A stretch of DNA of 64,000 nt from a virus: IMG/VR virus record IMGVR_UViG_3300029982_000012; one strand, given 5' to 3'. The notes beneath the pieces were generated by a model that did not search any database, had not been told where the DNA came from, and saw only the letters and a list, made by a program, of their open reading frames with translations. Of this stretch, positions 16,846 through 48,170 are shown one piece after another; the stretch's first letter is position 1, and every line of letters begins with the position of its first letter. Made by a program: the position numbers and the translations under genes.

Positions 16846-17451
16846 ATGAAACACGTAGCAGTTTATTTGCGAGTAAGTACAGAAGGATTAAAAGGTGGTA
16901 AAGAGCAGACCACTGGTTCTCAACGTTTAGAGATTGAGATTTATCTTAAATCCAAAGGTATTACCGATTTTGTAGCGTATGAGGATTTAGGAATAAGCGG
17001 CACCAAGAAAGATCGCCCATCGCTAAAAAAATTGATGACTGACTGTCGCCAAGGAAAAGTTTCTATGGTGGTATGCTACAAGATGGACCGCCTCTTCCGA
17101 AGTCTCCCCGATTTGCTAGAAACTTTAGCGGAATTCACGAAACTAAGTATAGAGTTCGTAGCCTTGAAAGATGGGATCGATTTGTCCAATGCTACCGGTC
17201 GCCTTATGATGCAGATTCTTGGGGCATTCGCAGAATTCGAGGCAAGCGTAACGAAGGAAAGGGTATTGTCAGGTCTGGCCAACGCCAAGGCTAAGGGCGT
17301 GAAACTGGGGCGTCCTATGAAGACTGGCCATGCGGTTGTGGATAAACTTAAGGGTGAAGGACATAGTGTTATAGAGATTTCAAATATTACGGGACTAAGT
17401 CGGCAGAGCATTTATAGGACTTTGAATAAGGAGAATCGAAATGAAAACTAA
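16846..17451 (+). CDS. small serine recombinase (resolvase/invertase family)
   Basis: YLRVST catalytic Ser, DRP.L, DRLFRS, GRLMMQILGAFAEFE, C-terminal HTH. Confidence 0.95.
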   Translation: MKHVAVYLRVSTEGLKGGKEQTTGSQRLEIEIYLKSKGITDFVAYEDLGISGTKKDRPSLKKLMTDCRQGKVSMVVCYKMDRLFRSLPDLLETLAEFTKLSIEFVALKDGIDLSNATGRLMMQILGAFAEFEASVTKERVLSGLANAKAKGVKLGRPMKTGHAVVDKLKGEGHSVIEISNITGLSRQSIYRTLNKENRNEN

Positions 17452-17683
17452 ATCTGATGATCCAATAACAGGATTTGCATCCCCTAATCCACATGTAGGT
17501 GGTGGTAGCATTGGGTTAACCAAAAGAGAATATTTTGCAGTCATGGCCATGCAAGGTTTGGCGACGAGAGAACAGATCGACGCAAACAGAAATTGGAATG
17601 AGGGTCGCAAGGAAGAGTTATCCTTATATGCCGTAAAGATGGCCGATGCTCTTATTGCAGAACTTAATAAGGAGAAATTATGA
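17441..17683 (+). CDS. conserved phage hypothetical protein
   Basis: GLTKREYFAVMAMQGL...AVKMADALIAEL motif. Confidence 0.65.
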   Translation: MKTKSDDPITGFASPNPHVGGGSIGLTKREYFAVMAMQGLATREQIDANRNWNEGRKEELSLYAVKMADALIAELNKEKL

Positions 17684-17909
17684 AACTCACAAACGAAACC
17701 GATAAAGAACTGGAAGTTAAAGCAGATGAATATGCTGAAAATACTGAGTTAAACTATACTGATGAATTGTCGGAGGCCTTCAAAGCTGGAGCAGCTTACG
17801 GTGAAGCCAGGGCGTGGGAGAGTTTTTATTGGTTGATCGCAAGAGACTTCGGAAGCGGACCAATTAACCCGAATCATTTGCTAGAAGAAATTAAACGCCG
17901 AGGCATCCT

Positions 17910-31244: not shown

Positions 31245-33395
31245 TTATGAAGCAGATTGTGTAACTGCACTAAGAGCAAGATTGATTGCTACGAAGTAAA
31301 TGCTGGTTGTTAATTTTGCTTCCACATTCACATACATTGAGGGAGCCGTAATTTGGATACTTGCATTCTTGTATCCAAGTGGCGCATCACTTGAAGTGGT
31401 AGTCATTTTCAGTTTTTTGTAATAATCAAAACGTTGTTGCAGGAAACTTAAAGCTGAAGCAGCAGAAACGTCCGCTACAGACTTACCAACGATCGCAGTT
31501 TGGAAACTTTGTGCCAAGTCAAGAGATAAAATATCAGAAAGATAAACTGATTGAATTGAATTGTATACAAAGTTTTGGTCGAGTCCGTAAGTAGTTTGAT
31601 CTGATACCCAAAGAATGCCTGAAGTGTTTTGAGCAAGAACTAAAAGTCCTGCAGTCAAAGCATCAGAAACATCATCTGGATCACCAGAGTTATAACCAGC
31701 AGGATCTTGGAACGAAATTGCGTTCGTCAAATGATTGCAAATTGATTTGTAGAAACCTGCAGTCTGCATCCCAGCAGCCAAACAAGCAGCATACCAAGGC
31801 AAGAACAAGGTACTATTACCCAAAGAGTTAATTTGTGTAACTTGCTGACAAGTCAAATCACAACGATAACTTGCAAGTTCTTGAGCTTGAACTTTGCAAT
31901 TTGCATAAGTATCGTTGATCGATAAAATTGCAGTACGATTGCGTTTCAAAGTAGGAGTTGAATATTGAATACAATGAGATTTTAGCAATTCATTGATCGC
32001 ATTAATCGTATAGGTAGAAGATGGAGAAGTATTGCCAGCAGCGATGTCAGCAGTTGCATCTTGAGAAAATAAAGGAACAATAATGTTCACTTGAATTCCA
32101 GCAAATTGGGCAATTGCATTCACGATATCAGCAGCGAGAGTCGGTCCGAGCAATCCACCTGAAAGATAAGCAAGAGCAGCAGGATCTGGAAGACCAGCAA
32201 CTGCCGTTGAAGTAAAGTTAACCGCAGTAGAGGTTGAGAGAGCGGCTTCGAAAGCAGCAACAGAGTTTTTGATACGACCTGGCTGAACATCTGCGGTAGA
32301 AGCGATCCCAAGAGCAGTTACTTGATCTAAAGCAGAAGTAGGATTTGAATTTACTGAAGAATTGTAACTAGCCGAATAACCTGGTTGAGAATTAATGTAG
32401 GCCGCAAGTTGACCAATAGTGGTGAATTGATTTAATTCTATAGATAAATTTGCTCCAATTCCACCAGTTACAGTAGTAGTTAATGTAGTAGCATTAATGG
32501 TAACAGTTGCAGTTGTTCCTTCATAGCCCATAGAAAGAGCGATTACTGGAGAAATATTAAGAGTCTCATTAAGACCAGTGCTAGAATTAACGATTTGAAC
32601 TTCAACCGCTGGTTCATCCGAAGAAGTATAGAGACCTGAAGAAAATCCTAATGCAGCCAAATCACCTGGAGTCGAATCGATTAACTCAAACGATTTTCCG
32701 AATCCTTCGCTATAAGCAGCAGCATCGGCTGGAAGACTGATAGAAACAGTATTTGGAGCAGTTCCAGGAGCAGCAACTAAAGTTGTAGCCATTGCTGTGA
32801 AAGTAGCATTTAATGAAGTTACCAATGTCGCAACGTTAGTAATTGTTCCTGTAGGAGTAATTACTATGGAAGGACCACCATTTACCCGAACAGTAAAAGT
32901 AGCACCAGAAAGACCACTGTATGAAGTGATAGTATTTCCGGTAATGGTTGGAGCAACTTCAGCTTGAAGTGCGGTAGTGGTGTAACTATATTGATTTCCA
33001 CCGGATCCATAGTTTGAAGCAACTAATGTCCCATAAGTAGAAGCAGAATGGGTCAACATGAAAGCAGATGCTTCACGACCTCTATTTGTTTTACAGATAT
33101 AAATTGAAGATGGAGCACCGGTAATATCTGGATCATTGCTTGAAGCACATAAAGCTGCGAAACCATCAACGATTGGACCTGAACCATAAATACTTCTAAC
33201 GGTATTTAAGGCAGAAGGACCAAAAAAGTTATTGGCTAATGTTGTAACGGTATAATCAGGACCCGCACTAGCTTCGCCCATGATGAGGACGACACCTGAG
33301 GTAGCCAAGCCAGATGCATTTGAAATCACCTGAGTGTTGGTATAGGCACCTGGGACATTTGTGTTTAACCACGGAGTAACAATTCTTTGTGACAT
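31245..33395 (-). CDS. tail sheath protein
   Basis: 716 aa; N-terminal VPGAYT...LIMGEA..GP and C-terminal sheath pattern (DQTTY...NSIQ). Confidence 0.9.
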   Translation of the reverse strand: MSQRIVTPWLNTNVPGAYTNTQVISNASGLATSGVVLIMGEASAGPDYTVTTLANNFFGPSALNTVRSIYGSGPIVDGFAALCASSNDPDITGAPSSIYICKTNRGREASAFMLTHSASTYGTLVASNYGSGGNQYSYTTTALQAEVAPTITGNTITSYSGLSGATFTVRVNGGPSIVITPTGTITNVATLVTSLNATFTAMATTLVAAPGTAPNTVSISLPADAAAYSEGFGKSFELIDSTPGDLAALGFSSGLYTSSDEPAVEVQIVNSSTGLNETLNISPVIALSMGYEGTTATVTINATTLTTTVTGGIGANLSIELNQFTTIGQLAAYINSQPGYSASYNSSVNSNPTSALDQVTALGIASTADVQPGRIKNSVAAFEAALSTSTAVNFTSTAVAGLPDPAALAYLSGGLLGPTLAADIVNAIAQFAGIQVNIIVPLFSQDATADIAAGNTSPSSTYTINAINELLKSHCIQYSTPTLKRNRTAILSINDTYANCKVQAQELASYRCDLTCQQVTQINSLGNSTLFLPWYAACLAAGMQTAGFYKSICNHLTNAISFQDPAGYNSGDPDDVSDALTAGLLVLAQNTSGILWVSDQTTYGLDQNFVYNSIQSVYLSDILSLDLAQSFQTAIVGKSVADVSAASALSFLQQRFDYYKKLKMTTTSSDAPLGYKNASIQITAPSMYVNVEAKLTTSIYFVAINLALSAVTQSAS

Positions 33396-36506: not shown

Positions 36507-37307
36507 TTATCTACTTCCGTATTTAGACATCAAAGATGGTAAAATATCTTTTTCCCATCTATCTTCAGCCCATTTCTTCGCTTCTTCGAAGAACTTTTTA
36601 CCTTCTAGCCCTGGATGAATCCATTTACCGTCTTGACCTTCTTTAACGGTTCTAAAGGTTGTTATGCTTCTTTTTACGCTACCATCATCTTTTTTGGTTT
36701 GATAAATGGATAGCCCATGCAACACTGGAGTATTTCCTCTTCCTGGGATCCCACTCTCTATATCAAATGAATGTAATTTACCTATCCTTGGACTTCCTGT
36801 CTTCGGATCTATTTCTAATTTTTTGTAAGGAATATCTCTTTTTCTTAATTCAGATTTTACTTTCTTTATAAGTTCTTGTTGATATTTTAGTTTATCATCA
36901 TTACTACTTAATTCAGATGCTACCTTTCCCTGATCAAAAGCTACGATTCTGTATTTTTTACCATCCTTGCCAGTTTTAATTTCCCCTTTACTCCCAGGTT
37001 TTTTGGTATTCAAAAGACCCTTCTTCATATCGAAATTGTCAGGCAATCCTTTTTCAATCCACTCAGCATCTGCTTTTAAAGTAATCTCCCATAAATAGTC
37101 ATCAATTTTTTCGGCTTGAGATAGATTTTCTAAATAAATTTTACGGCTGGACTTTAATTTATTTTGTGCTTCCTCTACAATATGGGTTTGGGTATCTACT
37201 GCAAGTCCCTTTACTGATTTCTTTAAATCAGACACTACTTCTTTCTTGAAGTTTTCAAGAAATTGGGTAAGTGCCGATATATCTAAGGTGACTTTAAAAT
37301 CAGGCAT
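36507..37307 (-). CDS. putative neck/tail-completion protein
   Basis: FDMKKGLL...TFRTV...WIHPG pattern of myophage neck proteins. Confidence 0.55.
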   Translation of the reverse strand: MPDFKVTLDISALTQFLENFKKEVVSDLKKSVKGLAVDTQTHIVEEAQNKLKSSRKIYLENLSQAEKIDDYLWEITLKADAEWIEKGLPDNFDMKKGLLNTKKPGSKGEIKTGKDGKKYRIVAFDQGKVASELSSNDDKLKYQQELIKKVKSELRKRDIPYKKLEIDPKTGSPRIGKLHSFDIESGIPGRGNTPVLHGLSIYQTKKDDGSVKRSITTFRTVKEGQDGKWIHPGLEGKKFFEEAKKWAEDRWEKDILPSLMSKYGSR

Positions 37308-37308
37308 A

Positions 37309-37518
37309 TTAACCTTTTATAGGTACTCCATTTGGACCTAAGACTCTACCCTCTTTCATATCGATGAAACGGACTCGACCGTTTTCGTCCGTAATCTTCT
37401 TCTGGCCCTTTCCATTGACGCCACCCTCAGGAATAGGATTTGCGGCAAGATGAGTAGTGGTATGTTTTGCAGATAGTTTGCTAGCAGGAATGGGTCCGGC
37501 TAGCCCTGATTTTTTGGG
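37309..37518 (-). CDS. -1 frameshift extension of the mCpol protein (~65 aa, no own start codon)
   Basis: C CCA AAA slippery site; -1 frame KSGLAGPIPASK...GRVRFIDMKEGRVLGPNGVPIKG* ends 1 nt before the next ATG. Confidence 0.75.
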   Translation of the reverse strand, partial: PKKSGLAGPIPASKLSAKHTTTHLAANPIPEGGVNGKGQKKITDENGRVRFIDMKEGRVLGPNGVPIKG

Positions 37519-39539
37519 TCTGGGGCGGCACCCTCCATAGGAGCCGCTTTTTGTTGCATAGGTGCTGGTTTTGGAGGAGACTGTTGTTGAGCAGGCGCAG
37601 TAGGTGCAGGCGCTGAATTAGGAGATGTAGGCGATGGTTCAAGGCCTAGTAATTTACAAAGTTCAATCATTGATTTTAACATTTGAATACAAGAAGTGTA
37701 CAGGCCTTCATTTTGCTCTCTTGTGGCCTCCAACGATTGCTTATTGGCTTTAAATTGTTGAAGAGTTTGCGATACCATATTAACAACTTTTTCTCGTTGT
37801 ATCTGATCTTGATTGTCTTGTAATCCACCTTGCAGAACACCCATCATATCTGGTTGTTCATCACCACCTTGTGAATCGCCCATGACCTGTTCTTCTCCAG
37901 GCATAGGGCTATTAGGATCACTAACTGCTTGTGTATCTTGCTGAAAATCCTGATCTTGGTCTGAAATATTTTGTTTTTGTGCGTCTCCAAAATTCGACTT
38001 CACAGAAACATTGTCTTTCATTGCATCGCCTTGCGGCATCTCAGTATTATCTATTTGTCCGGCTTCCTGAGTAGGATCTGCATTTCCTTGACCAGGTTCT
38101 TGATCTAGTAAATTAAGTACTTCTTCAGCCGTTTCGTGTCCTTGCAAATTAGGGTCTTGTTGGCCATTTTGTGCTGGATCGCTTTCAACTGCATCTCCAT
38201 ACATTTCTTGACACTGAGGGCAATTTTCTGGGTGTTCTGCTCCCATGTCTTGAGCTTCTACATTTGATTGGTCCTGATCATACTCAGCACACCAAGGACA
38301 GTCACATGTGTCCTCGTGTTGTGGATTTGCTTGAGATCCAGTAATATTTTCTGTTTGACAATAAGGACAATCATCAATGTGACCGGTTTCTTGATTAGAC
38401 TGGTTGTATTCTTGACAAGCGGGGCAGTCATCGTGCATACCGGCAGTGCCGTCAGCATTTTCTTGTGCGTCAAGATCTTGACAAAAAGCGCAATCATCTG
38501 TACGGTCATCTTCATTATCGTGATTGTGTTCTTCAGCATCTTCATCGTTTTTATGGATATCGCAAAGCTTGCTTTTGTGTAAGTTACAATATTTTTCGGA
38601 TTTCTTATGATCCAGCATGTGGTTGTCCAAATGACGAGCAGTGGCGCTTATGGCCGATGCCTTTTCATGTAGCCCTTTTGCGTGGTCTTCATGTCTTTTT
38701 TGATTTCCTTGTCTCCACGCCTGTCTTTTTTCTGGATTTGCATTTATTTCTTTGTCCCTAGCCCAATCATCAGAACTTTCATGTCCAGTTTCAATAGGGG
38801 TTGTAGCAGTAGAGTAGGCTCTATGCATATCATGCATTGCCTGGTGCCCTTCTTGATGGGGGGTACCCCTACCTTCATTCCATGCAATTTTTTCATGTTG
38901 TCGTGCTAATCTAGAATGAGTAGGAGAATCCAGCCCCATCATTCCTTCATGGGTAAGTTTGGGCTTGCTATCCCCTAATTTAGGCCCTCTAGGTTTTTTG
39001 GTAGCAGTTTTCTTGTCCACCAATTGAGCATCCGCTTTATGTAAATTACATAGTCCCATAAGTTCACTCTTTTCCAGATAGGCCTCAGCAAGTTTATATT
39101 CCTCTTGTGTTGCCCTTTTTTCTCTGACTCTTCTTTTGGCTTTTTTAATATCTTCTTTGATATATTTATTGAAATAAACAATTCTATTTTTGCCACGAAG
39201 TTTCGCAACCAATAGGGCGGTGCCAGCCTCTGAAAGATTTTTCCCTACTCCAGCAGAAATAGTGTACCCAAATGATTTTTCGACACCGCTTCTTAATTCT
39301 TTTATTTTCTTTCTAGACTCTGGAGGAATAGCCATTGTAGCTTCATCTCCACCACCAGAAATTTTTGCTCCGTCATTTTGCTTGCACCAATGATCAATAT
39401 ATGCTTGGGCCGCATCAATACGGCCAGAAACTTTATGTAGTTCTTCAACATCGTTAGCAATTACGGCCCGACCTACTAGTTTTCCAATGCCATCACCATC
39501 GACAGCTATGTATAGCATCCCTGGCTTAATCTTTTCCAT
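37500..39539 (-). CDS. mCpol/GGDEF-like nucleotide cyclase domain fused to His-rich, CxxC-repeat and acidic regions; putative internal virion protein
   Basis: YIAVDGDGIG...ISGGGDE...TISAGVGKNLSEAGTALLVAKLRGKNRI in aa ~8-124. Confidence 0.75.
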   Translation of the reverse strand: MEKIKPGMLYIAVDGDGIGKLVGRAVIANDVEELHKVSGRIDAAQAYIDHWCKQNDGAKISGGGDEATMAIPPESRKKIKELRSGVEKSFGYTISAGVGKNLSEAGTALLVAKLRGKNRIVYFNKYIKEDIKKAKRRVREKRATQEEYKLAEAYLEKSELMGLCNLHKADAQLVDKKTATKKPRGPKLGDSKPKLTHEGMMGLDSPTHSRLARQHEKIAWNEGRGTPHQEGHQAMHDMHRAYSTATTPIETGHESSDDWARDKEINANPEKRQAWRQGNQKRHEDHAKGLHEKASAISATARHLDNHMLDHKKSEKYCNLHKSKLCDIHKNDEDAEEHNHDNEDDRTDDCAFCQDLDAQENADGTAGMHDDCPACQEYNQSNQETGHIDDCPYCQTENITGSQANPQHEDTCDCPWCAEYDQDQSNVEAQDMGAEHPENCPQCQEMYGDAVESDPAQNGQQDPNLQGHETAEEVLNLLDQEPGQGNADPTQEAGQIDNTEMPQGDAMKDNVSVKSNFGDAQKQNISDQDQDFQQDTQAVSDPNSPMPGEEQVMGDSQGGDEQPDMMGVLQGGLQDNQDQIQREKVVNMVSQTLQQFKANKQSLEATREQNEGLYTSCIQMLKSMIELCKLLGLEPSPTSPNSAPAPTAPAQQQSPPKPAPMQQKAAPMEGAAPDPKNQG

Positions 39540-42859: not shown

Positions 42860-43984
42860 TTACTTTTCCTTACTGTACGCATCTCTAATCTTTTTGACAT
42901 AGGGATGATTTGAAATAGAATTTGCATTGTTCTTCTTGGTACCAGTTATACCTTGATTCCAAGCAAAAGCCGTTTGATCGGGGTTATTTTTAAAATTGTG
43001 CTCTATGTGGGCTAGATGACGATCTGCTATTATTTCTTCAAGACCTTTGTTATCCTGCATAAATCTGTGCAATTGAGGACCCTTTAATGTCAGGGCCTTC
43101 CCATATTTTGCTTGAAGGTCCTTGTGTCCCTTAATAGTATCTGTAATGGTGTTAGGCATTAAAGCCCATTTACCATAAGCCTGACCTTGAGAAGTAGGAG
43201 CGTGGTTTGTATTTTTCCCACCACTTGATTCTACTTGCATGATAGCATTTAGCATTTTTTTGTGATCGTAATTATTTTGATGGGCTTGCATGTCGGGAGA
43301 ATTTTTGATATTCGAAGTATGATTAGTGCCTCCAGCTAGCGCTGCTGCCATGCCCAATCCTATACCGACATTTTTTAGTGCGCCTTTTTCTAGGACTTGT
43401 TCGGACTTATTGACGGATAATTTTGCGGTATAGTCGCTCTGATCAGGAAATTGGGGTTCAGCACTATCTGATTGATGATGGTAGGTTTTTAGCCTCTTAG
43501 GACCCTTTTTCAATTCTGCATTACCAAATTCAATTCCTGCTTCCTTTGCGGTTTTAGCGCCAGAGGATTTAATTTTGTCATGCATATCTTTAGGAACACT
43601 GATATGGGGTGCCCATTCACGTTGTTCAGGAAGTCCCATATGTGCAAATTTACCATGATGCTCTTTCATTTTCTCTGCAGAATTACCTTTTAATGTAATG
43701 ACAAAAACATCCGATCCATTACGATCTTTAAATTGGTTTGGTTCTATCTGAGTATTTTTTGCATCAGGAGGATTCAATGGAAGGTGTTTGGCCATGTTAT
43801 GAATTTCGTGAGCGTGATCTTTATTTGCGTCGAATTCTTTGATGGTAGAATGGTATGGGATACCATTATCTGACCTACAATCTTGACCATTAATCTTTAC
43901 TGGATATAGTAAAATCAACCCTTTATTGGCTTGTTCAGCATATTGGGCAGGATTTTCAGATTTATTTATTAAATTACATTCCAT
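42860..43984 (-). CDS. 2H phosphoesterase (Acb1-like) - lytic transglycosylase fusion, putative internal virion protein
   Basis: PYHSTI and APHISV (two HxT/S motifs); AIMQVESSGG...AYGKWALMPNT...AWNQG (SLT motifs). Confidence 0.75.
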   Translation of the reverse strand: MECNLINKSENPAQYAEQANKGLILLYPVKINGQDCRSDNGIPYHSTIKEFDANKDHAHEIHNMAKHLPLNPPDAKNTQIEPNQFKDRNGSDVFVITLKGNSAEKMKEHHGKFAHMGLPEQREWAPHISVPKDMHDKIKSSGAKTAKEAGIEFGNAELKKGPKRLKTYHHQSDSAEPQFPDQSDYTAKLSVNKSEQVLEKGALKNVGIGLGMAAALAGGTNHTSNIKNSPDMQAHQNNYDHKKMLNAIMQVESSGGKNTNHAPTSQGQAYGKWALMPNTITDTIKGHKDLQAKYGKALTLKGPQLHRFMQDNKGLEEIIADRHLAHIEHNFKNNPDQTAFAWNQGITGTKKNNANSISNHPYVKKIRDAYSKEK

Positions 43985-43988
43985 AAAA

Positions 43989-44933
43989 TTAAATATTCGA
44001 TACCAAGAATTTAGTTGCAAAAGTAGCTTTTACTTTACCAACCAATTCCATTTTTTTCTTTTCTAATTGTTCGATGTAAGGAAGGTACATTCTAGGGCCA
44101 GGTCCAGAAGATGATTGGCTGATACCATCCCTACTCAATGACTGACTTGTAGTCAGAAACAGATTAGTGATCACAGAGAGCATATTAATGGCAGCAATGG
44201 TTCCCACTAAATCATTGATCACTGTAGGAAACTGACCTTCAATTTTTGAAACACCGGTCTGATAAACAATTTGCCAAAATCCAGGAACAAAAGTAAGTGA
44301 ACTAAAAACATTCAAATACGGAATACCACCGTAAGCACCAACTCCGCCGCCACTAGCAACAGAGTAGGCACCTAGAATTGGTACTACGTTAACAATACCT
44401 TTAGCAAAGTTACTAGGCTCAAGCCATTCAGGTGGAATTTTAAAAACCGCATACCCATCACTACTAACAATTTGAACGCTTTGTACAGCCAAGATAGGAT
44501 TTTGTTCTGTTTTTAAATAAATGAAACTTTTGTAGAGAGCGATATCGAATGGGACCTTATCAGTAAACTGTTCTCTGCTTAAAGTAATCTTACAAAGCAT
44601 TTCGACTTCATTAATAGCCAGACCAATTTGGTCTTTAACGTCTTCAGCACTGTAAGAATCACCATTTGGAAATGCCAAGGGAATCCCTTTGAGATAACGA
44701 GAAATCAATAATTGTGGAGTAAGAATAGGCTCACATCTACTCAATAGACCAGACGATTTACTCATGTGGACTGGATATGCAGCAGAATAGAATTGCTTAT
44801 CCTTATCGAAATTCGGAGGTTGAGGAGTGCCGTCTAATGGACCAGATGTAGGTTTAGGAACCGGCTCATAAGGAGCTTGTTGTTCTACATATGGTGGTCC
44901 TGGCTTAAATGGAGGATTACTCATTAGCAACAT
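43989..44933 (-). CDS. putative head-tail adaptor
   Basis: YLKGIPL...SQSLSRDGISQS pattern of SPO1-like connectors. Confidence 0.6.
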   Translation of the reverse strand: MLLMSNPPFKPGPPYVEQQAPYEPVPKPTSGPLDGTPQPPNFDKDKQFYSAAYPVHMSKSSGLLSRCEPILTPQLLISRYLKGIPLAFPNGDSYSAEDVKDQIGLAINEVEMLCKITLSREQFTDKVPFDIALYKSFIYLKTEQNPILAVQSVQIVSSDGYAVFKIPPEWLEPSNFAKGIVNVVPILGAYSVASGGGVGAYGGIPYLNVFSSLTFVPGFWQIVYQTGVSKIEGQFPTVINDLVGTIAAINMLSVITNLFLTTSQSLSRDGISQSSSGPGPRMYLPYIEQLEKKKMELVGKVKATFATKFLVSNI

Positions 44934-46766: not shown

Positions 46767-48170
46767 TTAGGTGAAAAGTTGTCCTTGAAGATTTTCAACG
46801 ATAGCGTTCTTACGTGGAGCTTCTACTGCGAGAGTAGTCCAACGATAGAAAGCGTTATTGATTGACAATTGACTAATACCTAATTGGATTTTTTTGAATC
46901 CGCTTAGCTCACCTAAATGCATCGTGTCTTTTTGAATCAAGAAACCGGTTAAAGCACCTGGAGCCAAGTTACCAAGGTCGGTGAAAGTAGCACCGCTTGG
47001 AAGAGCAAGAATATTACCGATAAAGAGTGGTCCTGGAGCAACGTTTGCAGCCACACCAGCAGCAGTACGATAAACGCGGTAGTAAAGAGCACCGGCAACT
47101 GCACCGATAGCAACTGATACTTTATTTCCAGCGAGAGCAGGAGTAACAGTTGTTACAGCAGAAGTTGGGCCTTCGCCGAAAGCGTTAACTGCAGCAGCTT
47201 GGTAGCTATAAGCAGCAGCTTGGAGGAGTGATCCAGCAGCGCCACCGTCAGTAGCAGTTGCTGTTGGAGCAGCAGGAGCGCCTACGATAGATTGGTTGAT
47301 AGGGCTAATTTGCTTACGCAAGTACTGAGACATTTCCATGGTGATTGCACCGCTAGAAGTCCATTGAGTACGTAAGTGAGAACCAGTAGCTTCTTGTGGG
47401 CTACCAGCAAGAACGATACGTTCTTTAGCTTGGCTAATTTTGTTGTAAGCAGAGAGAGAAGAAGGATCAAGCATAAGTTTGTCAGCGCGACCCATGTTAA
47501 GGGCAGAACGAACTGAAATATCTTCAATCAATGATTGGGTGAGGGCTGCGCCACCTGCAGAGAACACTACAGTTGCACTTGAACCGTATGATGCGAACAT
47601 GAGATCTTGTCCATTGCGCTCATAGTCAGAAGCACGAACTTGAAGATCAACACCGCGCATATTTGGCAATGCAGGTACTAACGCTGGGTTACCATCGAAA
47701 ACACCTTGGTTAGAGAAATCTGAGTTACCTGCGAAAAGGTCGAACTCGATATCTTGAGCCAAGTTAAGAGCTGCGTCTTGTGCTTGGCGCTCTTCAGCAG
47801 AAACTTTATCGAAAGTTTCAACTGCGTTAGCTACCAGTGAATGCTCACGAGTATCAACGTAGTAAGCCATTGGAATTACGAGACGAGCTGCTTGACCAGT
47901 CTTTTTGGCTCCGAGCATACCTTCGTATGCAGCAGATCCACCGAAACGACCTACAGACAACTTGCGGTTGTACTGATAAAGGTTGCTTTTTGCAGGACGA
48001 CTGTCCAACATTTTTTGCAATTTGATGGTTTCTTCAGCAGCAGTCACGTTTACCATAACTGGCGCTAAATCTTCGATTTGGTAAGCTGCACCTTGTACTA
48101 AAGTACTAGGGGCTGCATTATAACTGCCTGCTTCCAATGCTTTCATGAGGCCCTGAAGTTGTTCTAACAT
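46767..48170 (-). CDS. major capsid protein
   Basis: 467 aa, strongly biased codons, MKALEAG...GAAYQIEDL N-arm like Herelleviridae MCPs, strong terminator. Confidence 0.9.
   Translation of the reverse strand: MLEQLQGLMKALEAGSYNAAPSTLVQGAAYQIEDLAPVMVNVTAAEETIKLQKMLDSRPAKSNLYQYNRKLSVGRFGGSAAYEGMLGAKKTGQAARLVIPMAYYVDTREHSLVANAVETFDKVSAEERQAQDAALNLAQDIEFDLFAGNSDFSNQGVFDGNPALVPALPNMRGVDLQVRASDYERNGQDLMFASYGSSATVVFSAGGAALTQSLIEDISVRSALNMGRADKLMLDPSSLSAYNKISQAKERIVLAGSPQEATGSHLRTQWTSSGAITMEMSQYLRKQISPINQSIVGAPAAPTATATDGGAAGSLLQAAAYSYQAAAVNAFGEGPTSAVTTVTPALAGNKVSVAIGAVAGALYYRVYRTAAGVAANVAPGPLFIGNILALPSGATFTDLGNLAPGALTGFLIQKDTMHLGELSGFKKIQLGISQLSINNAFYRWTTLAVEAPRKNAIVENLQGQLFT

Follow-up and report, generated by a model that had tools for sequence, protein, structure and literature searches.

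A predicted -1 ribosomal frameshift that extends an mCpol protein in a phage virion module, and the frame arrangements of its relatives

Why does a gene in the virion block of a phage stop 192 nt short of the next gene, when the stretch in between holds a conserved module in another reading frame? The question is raised by IMG/VR virus record IMGVR_UViG_3300029982_000012, 64,000 nt of uncultured phage DNA from a peat metagenome (the window in what follows), in which a 679-aa protein with an mCpol domain is encoded by a minus-strand open reading frame (ORF) at 37500..39539. An earlier note on this DNA had proposed a programmed -1 ribosomal frameshift that extends the mCpol protein. A comparison of 42 distinct related loci, the window included, upholds that proposal through the in-phase conservation of a slippery heptamer, purifying selection on the -1 ORF and the existence of in-frame fusions. 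We put at roughly 87% the probability that such a frameshift at C CCA AAA extends the protein, with 679-aa and 743-aa products coming from one message.

Anatomy of the junction in the window

The 679-aa ORF, the putative short isoform (39539..37500, minus strand, as for all features of the window given with coordinates below), ends in GAC CCA AAA AAT CAG GGC TAG. The heptamer C CCA AAA (37512..37518) lies in X XXY YYZ phase across Pro675 and Lys676. Twelve nt 5' of it is an internal Shine-Dalgarno (SD)-like element, GGAGGG (37531..37536), within the codons GAG GGU of the peptide 'APMEGAA'. Seven nt after the heptamer a hairpin is predicted, GCUAGC-C-GGA-CCCAU-UCC-U-GCUAGC (37480..37504; -13.4 kcal/mol, z -2.5 against dinucleotide shuffles), and the 0-frame stop TAG (37502-37500) sits within its 5' arm. 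After a slip, the -1 frame (37309..37518) runs for 69 codons to a TAA at 37311-37309, giving a long isoform of 674 + 69 = 743 aa; upstream, it is limited by a TAA at 37620-37618. Its stop lies 1 nt before the ATG of the next gene at 37307. The SD-like element, heptamer, hairpin, closed -1 frame, missing start codon and abutting stop are all where the earlier note had placed them.

How often would such elements be met by chance? At 1.8% of the codons in the window's own genes the -1 frame is open for at least 69 codons, and at 0.68% there is an in-phase X XXY YYZ; GGAGGG is found 6 times in 128 kb. The 192-nt 'gap' after the 679-aa ORF has no coding-strand promoter-like site, no terminator and no Rfam match. 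The hairpin was considered as an intrinsic terminator and rejected, because it is not followed by a T run.

How would one message give rise to two proteins? A ribosome on C CCA AAA would hold tRNA-Pro in the P site and tRNA-Lys in the A site, while the hairpin 7 nt downstream would resist unwinding and GGAGGG 12 nt upstream could pair with 16S rRNA. Some ribosomes would then slip back by one base in tandem (CCA to CCC, AAA to AAA). Those that do not slip would reach the stop three codons on and release the 679-aa form; those that slip would read 67 further codons and release the 743-aa form with the conserved module, in which the junction peptide would be ..DPKKSGLAGPIPASK (also written ..AAPDPKKSGLAGPIPASK). 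That ribosomes slip here, how often they would do so and what each stimulator contributes are inferred. C_CCA_AAG has been listed among the highly shift-prone heptamers in Escherichia coli (Atkins et al. 2016, PMC5009743).

Conservation of the site and its frame arrangements

Is this junction kept in other phages? The extension peptide and homologues served as queries to collect relatives from IMG/VR, JGI metagenomes, GTDB genomes and Logan/ENA contigs. A search of IMG/VR for 'APxEGAAxDPK' with an unbiased codon pattern returned only two loci, both already in the comparison set. Among the INPHARED phages, neither megablast nor tblastn gave a match to the locus, its protein, the extension or an in-frame homologue; the major capsid protein (MCP) was the only query with a match there, to Myxococcus phage Mx1. 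Four arrangements of the module were found among the 42 loci. It lies in the -1 frame in 21, including the window, and in the +1 frame in nine; in the other 12 it is in frame, with a heptamer in five and without one in seven.

In all 21 of the -1 loci the heptamer is in phase, 1-9 codons ahead of the 0-frame stop; it is C CCA AAR (AAA or AAG) in 20 of them and A AAA AAA in one (L061). The stretch in which a shift is permitted, from the upstream -1 stop to the 0-frame stop, is 19-25 nt long in four loci (L007, L025, L009 and L046), and the heptamer falls inside it every time. The codon preceding the heptamer ends in C in 20 of 20 cases, against a background of 30% for two-fold Y-ending codons, and the Pro codon of the heptamer is CCA in 20 of 20 (background 38%).

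Could the two frames be an artefact? An assembly or sequencing indel in the A6 run, with one continuous ORF as the true gene, is suggested by the error-prone nature of homopolymer runs and by the many relatives that do have a single continuous ORF. However, over 37200-37700 the Logan contigs of three peat runs (X1, X16 and X17, the latter two not flagged as source runs of the window) are identical to the window with no indels, in a check made on assembled contigs and not on raw reads; the A7 run that would have merged the two frames is absent from all three. Moreover, the two-frame layout recurs in 21 distinct loci from separate samples, with runs from A3 to A7. The 679-aa ORF has 135 protein homologues at E<=0.001, and among the best 120 of these 135 clusters 84 stop 0-12 residues after '..PK', 13 end in '..PQ' plus one residue, and about 20 bear the module in frame. 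An indel is excluded for every practical purpose because the relatives keep the two frames.

The length of the A run at the heptamer differs among relatives (A4, A5 and A3G were also seen), and the bases after the heptamer vary while the two-frame layout stays: CCCAAAACCCC in L001, CCCAAAAACT in L002 and CCCAAAGCC in L012. The slippery site and the extension, whose joint conservation the earlier note had proposed as a check, are thus both kept among homologues. By contrast, the K-S cleavage site PKKSG that the note thought the shift might create is not conserved, since L001 reads PKTPG and L002 PKNSG. Might RNA polymerase slip on the A run instead of the ribosome, giving an mRNA with one added A? 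The A6 run of the window and the A7 runs of L014 and L051 speak for it, but most relatives have only A3-A5 (CCCAAAG, CCCAAAACCCC), and such runs are too short for efficient polymerase slippage. The conserved heptamer phase, fixed spacer, hairpin and SD-like element are, in addition, ribosomal signals. Polymerase slippage is therefore improbable.

On the pattern of its substitutions, the -1 extension is under strong purifying selection. Across the window's clade of eight loci, the extension has a ratio of nonsynonymous to synonymous substitution rates (dN/dS) of 0.04-0.14, its synonymous sites being nearly saturated, and differences number 874, 327 and 158 at codon positions 3, 1 and 2, respectively. 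The -1 or +1 extension ORF is open in all 30 shifted loci. These data bear on the suggestion that the gene carries a dead frameshift mutation, with a decaying module and the 679-aa form alone being made. The in-frame relatives lend that suggestion something, since in them the fused state is realised and could be the ancestral one, but the low dN/dS with saturated synonymous sites, the open frames and the conserved heptamer and hairpin all stand against it. Because of the purifying selection it can be regarded as excluded, with a very small probability left to it.

Is the module instead a separate small protein with its own start, for which GGAGGG would be the ribosome-binding site? The SD-like element upstream and the way in which the ORF end adjoins the following gene fit this idea. 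However, ATG, GTG and TTG are all absent from the -1 frame ahead of the conserved module, and there is no conserved alternative start. In L025, L009 and L014, no more than 0-3 nt separate the opening of the -1 frame from the heptamer. When the module by itself was used as a query, it was also found in frame at the C-terminus of more than 100 protein clusters, including mCpol proteins (L006 and L016), and in these relatives it is covalently fused. The missing start codon and the late opening of the frame in some loci make separate initiation very unlikely. Because there is both purifying selection and in-frame fusion, the module appears to be made and to be part of this protein. The comparison shows that the site, its spacing and its predicted structure are conserved and that the -1 ORF would be translated as part of the mCpol protein.

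Are the stimulatory signals conserved as well? A single consensus helix for the window's clade is not meaningful, as the hairpins lie at shifted positions and differ in sequence, and for this reason per-sequence folds were used: in each of the 30 shifted loci the 45-50 nt that follow the site were folded for minimum energy. A clear hairpin was found in 27 of the 30, mostly starting 5-7 nt downstream of the site. The mean fold energy is about -15 kcal/mol, against -5.9 in 143 background windows taken from other parts of these genes (Mann-Whitney p 6e-16, a generous value because the loci are related). The stems are unrelated in sequence, for example CCAAUAGG/CCUAUUGG in L012, GGGGUAAU/AUUACCCC in L032 and GCCGGUAGC/GCUACUGGC in L005. 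Of the 30 loci, 25 (17/21 of the -1 and 8/9 of the +1 loci) have an SD-like core 9-14 nt upstream of the site, and the Glu codon at this element is always GAG, as against 15% in the rest of the genes. The host appears to read such elements, because an SD core stands ahead of 14 of the window's 25 module genes, compared with 9% of random windows.

Several points weigh against a programmed -1 shift at this site. Three of the -1 loci (L073, L074 and L079) lack a convincing hairpin and four of the 21 lack the SD-like core. The string 'EGAA..PK' is also present as protein sequence in some in-frame relatives, and the conservation upstream of the site could therefore partly act at the protein level. 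Counts of loci are not counts of independent events, because the loci share kinship, and a check made at contig level hides minority variants. In E. coli, a heptamer with A as its last base, as in the window, shifts less well than one ending in AAG, and the efficiency of the slip may be low for this reason.

How do the nine +1 loci (L005, L010, L018, L027, L028, L044, L063, L067 and L069) reach the module? All nine have the conserved sequence xCC CCA CAG in a single phase (for example L005:3947-3972 and L010:3986-3999). An AGGAGG-like element lies upstream at the same distance as in the -1 loci in eight of the nine, and a hairpin begins 6 nt downstream in seven. A tandem -2 slip on CC CCA CAG (CCA to CCC, CAG to CAC) would retain two of three base pairs at both sites, and a +1 slip would find no obvious re-pairing. 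The +1-frame arrangement is most simply read as a tandem -2 slip, and the family may include a natural -2 site.

Of the 12 in-frame loci, the five with a heptamer are L051 (=L076:2539), L057, L064:2542, L066:2542 and L068:2500. In L051 and L057 (A AAA AAG) and L064 (C CCA AAG) a -1 stop follows one codon later; in L066 and L068, C CCA AAA leads into a 14-codon -1 tail. Hairpins are strong in all five (mean z -3.4). This would be the arrangement of dnaX, in which a shift yields a truncated form without the module. The seven in-frame loci without a heptamer (L006, L015-L017, L019, L058 and L071) encode the same peptide, IGQPIGK, and form no hairpin; the hairpin is thus not a by-product of the encoded peptide. 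Two relatives, P0018 (575 aa) and L071:2400-2520, look as if they were fused through an indel upstream of the site. The linker of P0018 has the sequence that the usual P/A/Q linker would give if translated in the -1 frame, and L071 has CCCCACAG in the post-shift phase within one ORF.

Have these arrangements interchanged? On a tree of the downstream gene from 41 loci all four are intermixed, with at least 13 changes by parsimony, a count that phage mosaicism could inflate. The window falls in the well-supported clade of eight loci, all of the -1 type. The sister pair L014 (-1) and L051 (in frame) both have A7 and share the post-site peptide KK(T/S)EGAVGQ(P/S)IGKLPT in frames one base apart. 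Read from its sequences, the pair shows how a frame flip can occur around the A7 run. The family is thus a compact natural test bed for recoding, in which one junction is solved by -1, by the +1 frame, by a dnaX-like truncation and by plain fusion.

It is a tentative idea, and one we regard as somewhat doubtful, that selection keeps the two-isoform output, with and without a docking module, and not any one frame. Lineages would then have swapped repeatedly among a long -1 form, a long +1-frame form, a truncated -1 form and plain fusion, and the +1 class would most simply be a tandem -2 slip with stimulators of the -1 type. If this were true, CC CCA CAG would count as a new -2 signal occurring naturally in bacteria. 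It would then also matter to function in what ratio anchored and free copies of a virion-delivered cyclic-nucleotide synthase are made, for example if the enzyme entered the host along with the DNA and interfered with its nucleotide signalling.

The C-terminal module, its carrier and their neighbours

What is the module that the shift would add? In the window it is KLSAKH..PIPEGGVNGKGQKKITDENGRVRFIDMKEGRVLGPNGVPIKG (37312..37479), and across the alignments it is about 55 residues long and always at the gene end, with the pattern KLPTKHTTPHVA..P.P.GG.NAKGQKK..D..GK.RFIDMKEGRV..P.GVPVK. Gene callers cut the protein short in most of its closest relatives (the 84 of the best 120 clusters that stop just past the slip site). 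The module is therefore missing from databases and a stretch of 190 nt looks non-coding. An AlphaFold2 model was built on the last 198 residues of an in-frame relative. It has a confident helical hairpin, with a predicted local distance difference test score (pLDDT) of about 90, then a disordered linker and then the module, which is modelled as an extended stretch with one beta-hairpin (pLDDT 67-86). The same 198 residues had no match in the PDB by Foldseek at E<=0.001 and no usable match in the ESM Atlas, and the module had none in Pfam. The modelled shape suggests a peptide that folds on a partner. Our guess from this shape and from the gene position is that the module is most likely a docking peptide, one that would fix a set share of the protein to another component of the virion or of its assembly.

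The mCpol domain occupies residues 10-122 of the 679-aa protein (Pfam PF18182, 62.2 bits against a gathering cut-off of 26.4), with both the DGDGIG and the GGGDE motif present. It is followed by a conserved region, CxxC repeats, an acidic stretch, a conserved helical region, the P/A/Q-rich linker and the module. At least five CxxC pairs (CAFCQ, CPACQ, CPYCQ, CDCPWC and CPQCQ) lie in the acidic stretch at residues ~345-445 (38200-38520). These pairs may be zinc knuckles; CPYC-like repeats also occur in relatives, including those without mCpol.

Is the carrier an enzyme? The earlier note had treated it as one, and for the family this does not hold. About half of the module-bearing proteins have mCpol and about half, of 420-480 aa (P0122-P0222), do not, and mCpol is thus an optional N-terminal addition. 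The predicted frameshift belongs to a virion-module protein that sometimes carries mCpol. It is reasonable to think that this protein may be head cargo, and that a fixed ratio of isoforms may set its anchoring.

The phage is contractile-tailed, and the mCpol gene belongs to its virion block, with the MCP (46767-48170) on one side and the sheath (31245-33395) on the other. The MCP is phrog_752 and is 46.5% identical to that of Mx1. The next gene (36507..37307) encodes a 266-aa protein of phrog_16819, modelled by AlphaFold2 at pLDDT 85.7. Foldseek gave no match for this model. VIA-align placed it on 9mu2_P, from the 80alpha/SaPI1 neck, with Z 11.5 and a root-mean-square deviation of 2.4 over 106/109 residues, the next row having Z 6.6. 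It is probably a head-tail connector with a neck-like fold, and the model has an alpha/beta domain inserted in the neck-subunit fold. A possible ejection protein of 386 aa is encoded at 42860-44020; it has an SLT lytic transglycosylase domain (Pfam E 3e-5), and its C-terminal part matches the end of a 1479-aa 'NUDIX hydrolase' of Mx1. The scanned neighbours of the mCpol gene are virion-module genes. No transmembrane or CARF effector family was found among the flanking genes scanned by Pfam and PHROGs, no dedicated effector search having been run.

The nearest cultured phage is Myxococcus phage Mx1, whose gene order is conserved with that of the window. Its orthologue of the mCpol gene, WNM70340.1 (L092:16964-18370), encodes 468 aa in one ORF that abuts the next gene and is annotated as hypothetical. 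Mx1 is thus a cultured relative in which the orthologous gene is a single ORF. The helical region of its product matches that of the window's family (hhalign probability 82%); the match of the module to its C-terminus is collinear and weak (E 0.005, probability 7%). The N-terminus of the Mx1 protein is mCpol-like, and the acidic motif DGDxIG seems to be missing from it. At 17173-17904 of the Mx1 record there is a separate 'nucleotide cyclase' gene, and the Mx1 virion block contains a 'kinase' gene as well as that for the large 'NUDIX hydrolase'.

Some members of the module family are on contigs assigned to metagenome-assembled genomes (MAGs). L058 (CAZRNW010000109.1), in which the module is in frame, is on a 9-kb contig of an uncultured Flavobacteriaceae MAG, and others are labelled as Rhabdochlamydiaceae or Leptolyngbyaceae MAGs. 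These are probably phage contigs that were carried into bins, so the labels do not give a host range.

Comparison with known systems

Which known systems does this junction resemble? Frameshifts that add C-terminal extensions to phage capsid and tail proteins have been described in gene 10 of T3 and T7, in gp5A/5B of Lactobacillus phage A2 and in Listeria phages A118, A500 and PSA (PMC5009743). The Ig-like domains of Fraser et al. 2006 are among such extensions, and for these -1, +1 and in-frame solutions are interchangeable (PMC5009743). The family described here is like them in that a small accessory C-terminal domain would be placed on a share of the copies of a structural-module protein, and in that related phages reach one domain by -1, by +1 or in frame. 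By contrast, the carrier in the window is neither the major capsid nor the major tail protein, the MCP being encoded by a different gene, and its family often bears an mCpol enzyme domain. An Ig-like extension was considered and rejected: the module has about 55 aa, against ~80-100 aa for Ig domains (Big_2, I-set and FN3 being the families compared), its model has one beta-hairpin, and Pfam and Foldseek are blank.

In the tail assembly chaperones G and GT, a conserved shift near the 3' end sets the ratio of short to long forms, and is -1, -2 or +1 depending on the phage (PMC5009743). The window shares the conserved frameshift near the 3' end and the predicted short and long forms. A tail chaperone was nevertheless rejected because of where the gene is found, with the MCP gene on one side and the neck and sheath genes on the other, and not between tube and tape measure; sequence similarity is absent.

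The mCpol domain is a Cas10-like cyclic-nucleotide synthase known from Panoptes defence. The domain in the window has in common with Panoptes mCpol a PF18182 match well above the cut-off and the DGDGIG and GGGDE motifs. It differs in being encoded by a phage, within a virion block, and in being fused to a long non-enzymatic body. The one Panoptes paper covered (PMC12657230) does not mention phage-borne mCpol, and in the literature searched we found no description of it or of recoding in this gene family. A phage mCpol is here marked as part of a putative two-form virion-module protein, and the delivery of a signalling enzyme by the particle therefore becomes a testable idea.

The closest likeness in mechanism is to E. 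coli dnaX. In both, an X XXY YYZ heptamer that is in phase and ends in Lys codons is preceded by an SD-like element at a distance of about 10-13 nt and followed after 5-7 nt by a stem-loop. The elements of a dnaX-type cassette, all of predicted function, are present in the window: the in-phase heptamer, the conserved -1 ORF without a start, the 3' stem-loop and the SD-like element. The window differs in its heptamer, C CCA AAA, and in its gene, which is unrelated and lies in a phage virion module. It also differs in outcome, since the shift would lengthen the protein, whereas that of dnaX truncates it. A dnaX-like outcome is predicted for the relatives L051, L057 and L064, where ribosomes that slipped on A AAA AAG or C CCA AAG would meet the -1 stop one codon later; L051 reads K-K-S-E across the site, as dnaX does. 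The mechanism is thus an ordinary one, of the dnaX kind; what is new is the recoded gene family and its several frame arrangements.

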